DNA of 64,000 nt from Escherichia phage PMBT57. Position 1 is the stretch's first letter. Each line of letters opens with the position of its first letter. The notes under the pieces are model-generated. The model had not been told where the DNA came from, did not search any database, and was given only the letters and a program-made list of their open reading frames with translations. The position numbers and the translations under genes were made by a program. The stretch lies in sequence record MG770228.1. One strand, given 5' to 3'. Shown piece after piece: positions 32,097-33,811 of this stretch.

Positions 32097-32600
32097 CTAT
32101 TCAAACAGTTTACGGTCAGAACGAATCTGGTTCCCCAGTTCAATCAGTTGGTTATCACGGAGTCTAACAGTTGCCCTGAGTTCTTCAACCAAACGTCTGC
32201 CTTCTTCAAGACTTGAGTCGAGTCTGGCTGCATGGCTTGCAAGATTGAGGCATTGAGTGGTTCCGGTTGAGGCTTGACGTTTATAACTCTCGGCTCGTTT
32301 TTCTGACTGGAGCAACCGACTATTGTACTGGTTAGTAATAGAATCAATAACGACTTCATAAGACTCTTTGGCTTTATCAAGTCGAAGGGTAAGTTGCCCG
32401 ACTTCATAACTGTGTTCCCGATTCTTTTGGTCATAAGCCAGTTTTACTCTATCAAGTTCTTTTGAGTACTCCTTCTTATCTTCATCCCATAGTGCTTGAA
32501 CTTTCTTTTCACCATGTTGTGAACCAAGAAGAAAAAGGGTAGCTCCCAGAGCTACCCCTCCCAAAAGACATACAGTTAACTTAATTAACGATGTCTTCAT
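32097..32600 (-). CDS. Rz-like i-spanin
   Basis: N-terminal transmembrane helix ([22 protein letters not shown]) followed by charged coiled-coil; start moved to Met14 of the track ORF; contains an embedded +1-frame lipoprotein gene. Confidence 0.6.
32144..32359 (-). CDS. Rz1-like o-spanin lipoprotein, embedded in the Rz gene in the +1 frame
   Basis: Signal peptide [18 protein letters not shown] with lipobox IVGC; mature part is short and Pro-rich ([13 protein letters not shown]); lies entirely within the Rz ORF in another frame. Confidence 0.6.
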   Translation of the reverse strand: MKSLLILLLTSTIVGCSSQKNEPRVINVKPQPEPLNASILQAMQPDSTQVLKKADVWLKNSGQLLDSVITN

Positions 32601-33207
32601 TACACCTCTCCAGAGGGACATTACCAATACGATTAGCAATCCATCCTGTAGTGTACTCAGGCATATTAAGAGATAAATAGTAGTTTAACTGTTTACCATC
32701 TAGAGACTTCAAAATGAGCTTACAGGCTTCTACTTTGCCTCGTTTATTCTGAAGGCTTTTATATGCACTTAGAGTTCCAGAACCGACTTTACCATCAACT
32801 TGTATTTTAGGGTAGTCTTTGCCATTTCTGGAGAAAGCATTAAGAGATTCTTGTAACCAACGAGATGGTCTTGCAGGTCCAGTATTAACACCAGCATCTA
32901 CTAGTTTTTCTGTTACCGCTGGTGATACATCTGCAAACTTAACAAAGCCAGGCTTCAAGATGTAATCGTTGTAATAAATACTTGATGCCATTTCCTGAGT
33001 TAAGTTCTTCATTGAACCATCCCAGTTATACATCGACTCTAGTTCTTGCTTATGCTTTTGAGCAACCTGAATAGTTACACCATGATTAGTTTCACCTCCT
33101 GGGTCTTTGGGGTCATTAACGTATCCACCCTCAACAGCAAATACAGCAGCAATGATTGCTGCAATAACCCCTCCAACACCGCCAACCTTCTTCTTACTTA
33201 TTGCCAC
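32581..33207 (-). CDS. SAR endolysin, GH108-type N-acetylmuramidase (208 aa; N4 gp61-like)
   Basis: N-terminal weakly hydrophobic Gly/Ala-rich segment (GGVGGVIAAIIAAVFA) typical of a signal-anchor-release domain, followed by EGGYVNDPKDPGGETNHGVT, which matches the GH108 catalytic motif as I recall it. Confidence 0.75.
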   Translation of the reverse strand: MAISKKKVGGVGGVIAAIIAAVFAVEGGYVNDPKDPGGETNHGVTIQVAQKHKQELESMYNWDGSMKNLTQEMASSIYYNDYILKPGFVKFADVSPAVTEKLVDAGVNTGPARPSRWLQESLNAFSRNGKDYPKIQVDGKVGSGTLSAYKSLQNKRGKVEACKLILKSLDGKQLNYYLSLNMPEYTTGWIANRIGNVPLERCNEDIVN

Positions 33208-33457
33208 ACCAATCCTCCTTTGGTTTCAAACGAACCAGTCGGCAAATAATATTCAGCACAAAGAGTGCTATAGCAATGTTATTGCCATGTGGAATATCTT
33301 TGAGGATATGTTGGGGTAATGCAGAGAAAGAACTGGATAAGACATCCACACAAGAGAAGAACAATATTGCTAATGTGCTAATCTGAATAGATGCCCATTT
33401 CCAACAACGTTTCCAATTAGGAACCATTTCCACATGTTTGGTTAACTTGCGAACCAT
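33194..33457 (-). CDS. holin/pinholin candidate (two TM helices)
   Basis: Start moved to the internal Met (MVRKL...); two hydrophobic helices (ISTLAILFFSCVDVL, IAIALFVLNIICRLV); overlaps the endolysin start; SAR endolysins are usually paired with pinholins. Confidence 0.45.
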   Translation of the reverse strand: MVRKLTKHVEMVPNWKRCWKWASIQISTLAILFFSCVDVLSSSFSALPQHILKDIPHGNNIAIALFVLNIICRLVRLKPKEDWCGNK

Positions 33458-33774
33458 GCAAAAATCTCCCGTCTGGCAGCAGCCAGTATACCAATAATGA
33501 TACCCGCTCCAGCCCATACCCATTTACCAAACAATCCAGCACCAACAACTTTGTGTTTGATGGTAATGAACTCTTCAATAGTAGGGGCAGACTCAGCCAG
33601 AGACTTTTCTACATTCTCTAGTCGAGTGTCCATCTTATTAATAGACAGTTGAAGGTTACGTACAGCATCATCTAAATCTTGCCGAGATTTAGCATCACGG
33701 GCATTATTTTCGAAGAGTGTCTTCATACGTTCCTCCATTCGAGCTAGGAGCACCTCTACGGATTCATGACTCAT
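33442..33774 (-). CDS. coiled-coil protein with single C-terminal TM helix (holin/antiholin-like lysis accessory)
   Basis: 110 aa; N-terminal charged helical region, C-terminal GAGLFGKWVWAGAGIIIGILAAA transmembrane segment; first gene after a terminator. Confidence 0.5.
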   Translation of the reverse strand: MSHESVEVLLARMEERMKTLFENNARDAKSRQDLDDAVRNLQLSINKMDTRLENVEKSLAESAPTIEEFITIKHKVVGAGLFGKWVWAGAGIIIGILAAARREIFAWFAS

Positions 33775-33788
33775 GCTAAATCCTTATT

Positions 33789-33811
33789 GAAAAAGCCGGG
33801 GATACCCGGCT
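33789..33811 (-). terminator. rho-independent terminator upstream of the lysis cassette
   Basis: gccggg - gata - cccggc with T5 on the - strand; between the 417-aa gene and the lysis genes. Confidence 0.6.

Follow-up and report, generated by a model that had tools for sequence, protein, structure and literature searches.

The window analysed here is a stretch of 64,000 nucleotides from Escherichia phage PMBT57 (sequence record MG770228.1), and our subject is its lysis cassette (32097-33811, minus strand), which sits in a leftward late operon with the tail genes gp65-gp64 on one side and the portal gene gp59 on the other. An initial annotation made from the sequence alone had placed a lysis cassette here, and all of the sequence features that it listed are present on the minus strand where it had located them. 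They are given below with the roles that we assign to them in what follows.

33790-33811, minus strand: intrinsic-terminator-like hairpin in the gp64-gp63 gap, AGCCGGG-TATC-CCCGGCU followed by UUUU
33442-33774, minus strand: gp63, pinholin, 110 aa, 100% identical to gp63 of Escherichia phage N4
33550-33585, minus strand: juxtamembrane 'Receiver' block of gp63, about residues 64-75, conserved
33475-33522, minus strand: transmembrane domain (TMD) of gp63, residues 85-100, one uncharged stretch, W85-A100
33194-33457, minus strand: gp62, lysis regulator with slow holin-like activity, 87 aa, two hydrophobic segments, 100% identical to N4 gp62
start at 33523, minus strand: alternative longer form of gp62, 109 aa, with a 22-codon upstream extension
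32581-33207, minus strand: gp61, signal-anchor-release (SAR) endolysin, GH108 N-acetylmuramidase with PG_binding_3, 208 aa, GTG start after AGGAGG
32097-32600, minus strand: gp60, the spanin of the inner membrane (i-spanin), 167 aa, N-terminal TMD at residues 8-27 and a helical periplasmic domain
32144-32434, minus strand: gp60a, embedded outer-membrane spanin (o-spanin) lipoprotein, a 96-aa open reading frame (ORF) wholly within gp60, 56 aa when mature

A megablast search with positions 32000-33900 returned N4 at 99.3% DNA identity over 100% of the query, and vB_Eco_Jura, SPSP and vB_Eco_AL25 at 99.7%, the AL25 coordinates being those of the window. On the strength of this identity, the window is assigned to an N4-type phage of the genus Enquatrovirus. 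A script comparison found gp63, gp62, gp61, gp60 and gp60a each to be 100% identical to the N4 counterpart, and gene order and overlaps are the same as in the N4 cassette (NC_008720; Awuah et al., bioRxiv, 10.1101/2025.11.12.688109), from which the window differs by a few silent nucleotide changes and by a terminator loop that reads TATC instead of GATA. The only amino-acid difference from N4 in the cassette sits in the 22-codon extension of gp62 and is silent in the gp63 frame. Experimental results on N4 proteins cited below are those of this preprint.

With high confidence, we read the cassette as one in which gp63 is the pinholin, gp61 the SAR endolysin, gp60 and gp60a the spanins, and gp62 a slow auxiliary holin-like regulator. 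Gene content, identity to N4 and sequence features were computed here, and functions are taken from the preprint, in which identical proteins were studied; topology, translational coupling and the role of the hairpin are what we infer. In the proposed mechanism, gp61 would be exported by the Sec system and kept inactive in the inner membrane by a weakly hydrophobic SAR helix abutting the GH108 motif, and gp63, its helical N-terminal domain in the cytoplasm and its one TMD at the C-terminus, would accumulate, trigger and form small depolarising pinholes. Depolarisation would release gp61 synchronously to the periplasm, where it would cleave peptidoglycan, and gp60 and gp60a would then fuse or disrupt the outer membrane. 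The dispensable gp62 would act slowly and late as a holin-like regulator that may help the exit from the lysis-inhibited state of N4, and the transcripts of the upstream tail genes most likely end at the 33790-33811 hairpin. The cloned gp60-gp63 cluster of N4 lyses E. coli at ~25 min, and the spontaneous rapid-lysis (r) mutants of N4 described in the text of the preprint map to gp63 and to the SAR domain of gp61, none to gp62 (10.1101/2025.11.12.688109).

Analysis with a hydropathy and composition script resolved the gp61 N-terminus as VAISKKK-VGGVGGVIAAIIAAVFAV-EGGY, in which residues 8-25 (nt 33133-33186) form a run of 18 uncharged residues, 50% of them Gly or Ala, with KKK before it and E26-GGY directly after. 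The segment is weakly hydrophobic and Gly/Ala-rich, has basic residues ahead of it and abuts the catalytic domain, as a SAR N-terminus does. Pfam matched gp61 to PF05838 (Glyco_hydro_108) at 81.2 bits (cut-off 21.2) and to PF09374 (PG_binding_3) at 36.7 bits (cut-off 24.6), so that domain, EGGY motif (residues 26-29) and C-terminal PG_binding_3 all point to the GH108 family; the cassette also yielded an endolysin match in PHROG, besides matches to a holin and to an Rz-like spanin. By eye, a possible cleavage site lies between V-F-A and V. N4 gp61 complements amber mutants both of lambda R, which is paired with a large-hole holin, and of phage 21 R, which is paired with a pinholin; expressed alone it causes slow, leaky lysis, and the authors' verdict is a SAR endolysin (10.1101/2025.11.12.688109). 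They also report that it was demonstrated to be a membrane-associated N-acetylmuramidase in 2007. Rapid-lysis alleles in the SAR domain include, in the text of the preprint, G12E, which adds an acidic residue there; the window has the wild-type G12. The Pfam matches, the composition of residues 8-25 and the N4 experiments together bear out the SAR-type endolysin, with a Gly/Ala-rich N-terminus before a GH108 motif, that had been proposed from sequence.

The pinholin, gp63, belongs to PHROG 5211 (E = 3e-50), a family listed under 'unknown function', and matched no family in Pfam or NCBIfam. Its profile, compared with PDB and Pfam, matched coiled-coil proteins only, and Pfam scans of nine homologues gave generic coiled-coil noise together with DUF1515 in three of the nine, below threshold (best E = 0.0033). 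These profile matches and the W85-A100 stretch agree with the initial description of a 110-aa coiled-coil protein with one C-terminal transmembrane helix. Alignment across nine N4-like phages revealed a variable N-terminal helical part and a highly conserved block, P64-TIEEFITIKHKVVGAG-FGKWVWAGAG; this best-conserved block, P64-G92, spans the 'Receiver' region of the preprint and the start of the TMD, including the mutated residues. A tblastn search recovered 147 phage records; of the matches listed, nearly all belong to Schitoviridae (N4-like). A profile search against 5.8 billion proteins yielded 572 homologues; no Pfam domain occurs in any of the 120 matches listed, and most of the long contigs among them measure ~70-74 kb, as N4-like genomes do.

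In functional assays, N4 gp63 complements the S21 pinholin defect of phage 21 and not lambda S105, and is called a pinholin by the authors; its triggering with carbonyl cyanide m-chlorophenylhydrazone (CCCP) irreversibly kills >99% of cells; its deletion delays plasmid-driven lysis by ~20 min; and N4 lacking it was recovered only together with suppressor mutations in the SAR domain (10.1101/2025.11.12.688109). Because the delay is the opposite of what loss of an antiholin would bring, and given the complementation and the killing, the suggestion in the initial annotation that this protein is an antiholin or lysis regulator is contradicted by the preprint. The text of the preprint describes six rapid-lysis changes of gp63 near the TMD, of which T65I and T71A were reconstructed; the window has the wild-type T65 and T71. 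gp63 is pinholin-like in function and stands outside the S21 family, which is characterized by two TMDs, the first SAR-like: it has a single C-terminal hydrophobic stretch and no match to a holin in PHROG. We do not claim it as a tail-anchored lysis protein of the XhlA "hemolysin" type, for which a weak match to PHROG 1193 (E = 8.6e-4) was the sole support.

Public records carry this family under other names. It is widely mislabelled "tail length tape-measure protein", and also appears as "virion RNA polymerase", "RIIB lysis inhibitor" and "chromosome segregation ATPase"; for annotators, the family should carry the name pinholin. Sequences resembling gp63 were also found at the start (1-195) of the 159-kb record of Salmonella phage SKML-39 (NC_019910.1) and in a chromosome-sized contig of 2.76 Mb from Enterococcus faecium, both of which are most likely assembly chimeras or contamination and not real occurrences.

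The spanin genes close the cassette. gp60 matches PHROG 6197, 'Rz-like spanin' (E = 5e-68), of which N4 gp60 is the type member, and within it gp60a is read in the +1 frame (166 mod 3 = 1), with in-frame ATG codons at 32434, 32407 and 32359 and a lipobox, IVGC, at nt 32312-32323 that is followed by Ser at +2, with no Asp. gp60a has weak matches to three spanin families in PHROG, and its counterpart in phage AlfredRasser is annotated as an o-spanin. From these predicted features, gp60, with a TMD and a long helical periplasmic domain, has the build of an i-spanin, and gp60a, with a lipobox and out-of-frame nesting, that of an o-spanin. The N4 pair fully complements amber mutants of lambda Rz/Rz1, and the mature length given for N4 gp60a is 56 aa, the same as that computed for the window (10.1101/2025.11.12.688109). 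An ORF script, together with this complementation, upholds the earlier proposal of an i-spanin gene that wholly contains a +1-frame lipoprotein gene with lipobox IVGC.

The two-TMD protein, gp62, matches Pfam DUF7940 (E = 3.5e-13) and PHROG 1356, 'holin' (E = 1e-27). The start of its 87-aa form is conserved, with a GGGAG Shine-Dalgarno sequence and an MVRKL..VPNWK N-terminus. We set the 109-aa form aside: Fifi287 and Pokken both have a closed upstream extension, and the extension is open in four relatives solely because the gp63 codons there are conserved. From this sequence comparison, we regard the 87-aa form as the conserved product. In Delftia phage RG-2014, the gp63 homologue lies directly upstream of the endolysin, with gp62 absent between them (segment 2165-3104), and in Pseudomonas phage inbricus an in-frame stop interrupts the gp62 homologue, whose annotation covers a 44-aa fragment (segment 2518-2770); both genomes would fit an essential holin in gp63 and a dispensable gp62. 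N4 gp62 did not complement S21 or S105 within two hours, and alone it produced late, gradual lysis and >98% loss of colony-forming units (CFU) after CCCP; "lysis regulator" is the authors' term for it (10.1101/2025.11.12.688109). Its deletion left plasmid-driven lysis and the lysis of rapid-lysis phage unaffected, and wild-type N4 without gp62 began to lyse about an hour earlier. More than 60 rapid-lysis isolates of N4 included no gp62 mutant, according to the text of the preprint.

That gp62 could instead be a true second holin, forming large holes on a late clock as a backup that ends lysis inhibition beside the gp63 pinholin, is a possibility that we hold tentatively and regard as on balance unlikely. 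Alone, gp62 eventually releases the soluble lambda endolysin (17.8 kDa), the CFU loss after CCCP points the same way, its timing fits an asynchronous exit from lysis inhibition, and it is present with gp63 in 60 of 65 N4-like genomes (10.1101/2025.11.12.688109), its two TMDs being conserved; however, gp62 is non-essential, its overexpression during infection leaves timing unaltered, and complementation failed to reverse the early lysis of the gp62-deleted phage. A slow auxiliary regulator remains our preferred reading of gp62. In public records, the gp62 family (DUF7940) is widely labelled "holin" though dispensable, including in the RefSeq record of N4 and in many relatives.

Upstream of the cassette, the hairpin at 33790-33811 has a stem of 7-9 bp, a 4-nt loop and a U-run, stands 16 nt ahead of the gp63 ATG and is found nowhere else in the window. 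It was assessed by folding and by a custom scan with shuffles. Folding gave -15.2 kcal/mol (z = -5.1), with none of 200 shuffles folding as well, and along the late strand from 9.6 to 44.1 kb the scan found 4 sites of hairpin plus T-run with dG <= -12 kcal/mol, against 0.1 +/- 0.3 in 60 dinucleotide shuffles. Terminator-like sites on this strand follow gp50 (virion RNA polymerase, vRNAP), gp51, gp56 (major capsid protein, MCP) and gp64, and another lies inside gp60. A general terminator scan of the window did not list the hairpin, apparently because it extended the stem into the T-run; the vB_Eco_AL25 record has a terminator annotated at 33790-33810. By its GC stem-loop, its U-run and its intergenic position, the hairpin is a credible intrinsic terminator.

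We compared nine cassettes, those of N4, Klebsiella PW7, G7C, ECBP1, Achromobacter Axy12, Pseudomonas inbricus, Erwinia Fifi287, Stenotrophomonas Pokken and Delftia RG-2014. In all nine, a hairpin with a GC stem and a T-run follows the last tail gene and precedes the gp63 homologue; the sequences are unrelated, and the Pokken record lists it as a terminator, the G7C record as a repeat. In N4, Axy12, Fifi287 and RG-2014 the hairpin ends ~10-20 nt before the gp63 start codon, which leaves no space for a promoter; the distance is ~70-220 nt in PW7, G7C, ECBP1 and Pokken, with space for one. For annotators, a terminator upstream of the cassette is therefore a positionally conserved feature across Schitoviridae, as far as these nine phages represent them. 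The loop reads TATC in the window (33795-33810) and GATA in N4 (segment 1594-1609), the 16-nt palindrome being the exact reverse complement, by either a loop inversion or two substitutions. Fold energy, U-run, the AL25 annotation and the conserved position in nine of nine phages all support the terminator-like hairpin that had been noted ahead of the cassette.

In its simplest reading, the hairpin would mark the operon boundary of the packaging and tail genes, with the lysis and portal genes reached by read-through; because the gp63 ATG is just 16 nt away, transcripts would enter the cassette by reading through the hairpin. Read-through is common in the N4-like phage LUZ7, with >60% of its terminators leaky and ten altering their efficiency during infection; terminators are not mentioned in the text of the N4 preprint (10.1101/2025.11.12.688109). 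By eye only, a TATAAA whose -35 is poor was seen ahead of the hairpin; it is not counted as evidence.

The hairpin might go further and act, in line with the read-through-controlled expression suggested in the initial annotation, as a dedicated attenuator, setting the dosage and timing of the lysis genes through conditional read-through or antitermination, but from its sequence and setting we consider this unlikely. A strong hairpin and U-run so close to the gp63 ATG, with no space for a promoter between them, a position kept in nine divergent phages, the shifting efficiencies of the often leaky LUZ7 terminators, and a second terminator-like hairpin after gp61 would all suit such a device. Yet the end of an operon after the last tail gene would call for a terminator in any case, the wider spacing in PW7, G7C, ECBP1 and Pokken would allow a promoter, the noncoding rapid-lysis mutations of the preprint are given without coordinates in its text, and the plasmid-borne cassette lyses well from a foreign promoter (10.1101/2025.11.12.688109). 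An operon boundary crossed by read-through is the reading that we retain for the hairpin.

The second hairpin falls within the TMD codons of gp60, ~20 nt after the gp61 stop:

32533-32561, minus strand: terminator-like hairpin, GGGTAGCTC-TGG-GAGCTACCC followed by TTTTTCTTCTT

Its folding energy is -19.7 kcal/mol (z = -3.1), the AL25 record lists it as a terminator, and PW7 and G7C have comparable hairpins with T-rich tails at the same place, in differing amino-acid sequences. Its position after gp61 means that gp63-gp62-gp61 are bracketed by two terminator-like sites. It may be a by-product of Gly/Ala and then Leu/Phe codons in the TMD. That the two hairpins, the second of them in the first 70 nt of gp60, might make up one attenuation module, by which pinholin and endolysin would be balanced against spanin and portal, and so contribute to the unusually long lysis delay of N4 seems improbable to us; if true, such a module could tie to the unexplained classes of rapid-lysis mutants that map outside the cassette.

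Several points weigh against the mechanism that we favour. Its functional evidence comes from one preprint, largely by plasmid expression, and according to its authors the orientation of gp63 is ambiguous to predictors and gp62 could not be complemented in trans (10.1101/2025.11.12.688109). The TMD of gp63 has basic residues on both sides (K73-H74-K75 and K84 before it, R101-R102 after it), and the AlphaFold2 model of gp63 (16 sequences; helices at 6-61, 66-77 and 82-109) is of low confidence, with a predicted local distance difference test score (pLDDT) of 59, and good for secondary structure only. A scan of the gp64-gp63 gap detected no sigma-70-like promoter, although such a scan could miss an N4 late promoter, because these only remotely resemble the sigma-70 consensus. 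Termination and read-through at the hairpin are what we infer, since searches of the accessible literature turned up no N4 transcript map.

Two TMDs with cytoplasmic termini are the arrangement of class II holins and of the phage 21 pinholin. The reading of the initial annotation, in which gp62 is the pinholin-like gene that releases the SAR endolysin and gp63 an antiholin or accessory regulator, draws on that topology, with both termini of gp62 predicted to be cytoplasmic, on the PHROG 1356 match and the holin annotations in RefSeq N4 and many relatives, and on the lethality of gp62 after CCCP and the eventual lysis that it gives with SAR and soluble endolysins (10.1101/2025.11.12.688109), but we judge it very improbable, given that gp62 fails to complement S21 or S105 in the normal time window, can be deleted with plasmid-driven lysis unaltered, carries none of the rapid-lysis mutations in the preprint's text, and is missing in RG-2014 and interrupted in inbricus, whereas gp63 is retained in both, complements S21, bears r alleles and on deletion delays lysis and selects SAR-domain suppressors. 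The experiments on the identical N4 proteins show the two roles to be reversed, with gp62 the dispensable partner.

With gp63 as the pinholin, the cassette follows the logic of the S21-68/R21/spanin system of phage 21, in which a depolarising pinholin frees a SAR endolysin and spanins act thereafter. S21 has two TMDs, the first of which exits the membrane, whereas gp63 has one C-terminal TMD and a cytoplasmic helical domain of ~80 residues; R21 has a T4-lysozyme-like fold, whereas gp61 is a GH108 muramidase. No homology of gp63 or gp62 to S21 was detected by Pfam, PHROG or profile searches, yet N4 gp63 can stand in for S21, and gp61 for R21 (10.1101/2025.11.12.688109). As in lambda Rz/Rz1, the o-spanin gene is nested in the +1 frame inside the i-spanin gene, and the N4 pair complements the lambda ambers; unlike that pair, the N4 spanins fall in a different sequence family, PHROG 6197, with weak matches to other spanin PHROGs.

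Lysis inhibition in T4 involves the holin T and the antiholins RI and RIII, and T4 and N4 both delay lysis and thereby raise yield, the control point apparently being the holin. RI binds the periplasmic domain of the T4 holin. In N4, the putative inhibitor has been proposed to act on a cytoplasmic domain of gp63, and the lysis and lysis-inhibition proteins of T4 are not conserved (10.1101/2025.11.12.688109). N4 is one of only two coliphages known for lysis inhibition and has a burst of ~3000, and its lysis cassette offers a framework for how lysis timing controls yield. As this framework is already published for identical proteins, the window adds no new biology: the cassette is a known one, which the initial annotation recognised with the roles of gp62 and gp63 reversed.

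The surroundings of the cassette conform to those of its relatives, whose records share the annotated order gp65 (tail sheath)-gp64-gp63-gp62 (holin)-gp61 (endolysin or N-acetylmuramidase)-gp60 (Rz-like spanin)-gp59 (portal). Upstream, a gap of 103 nt, which in N4 spans 58654-58756, separates gp63 from the neighbouring tail gene:

33878-35131, minus strand: tail gene of 417 aa, upstream of the cassette

Within the cassette, neighbouring genes overlap by 16 nt (gp63/gp62), 14 nt (gp62/gp61) and 20 nt (gp61/gp60), which suggests translational coupling. The portal gene begins 8 nt past the gp60 stop, and for that reason the cassette is not a self-contained unit. Elsewhere in the window (9618-9635, both strands), between the end of the minus-strand vRNAP gene and convergent plus-strand genes, stands a palindromic hairpin, GCCCCTC-NNNN-GAGGGGC, that has a T-run on each strand and from its sequence looks like a bidirectional terminator.

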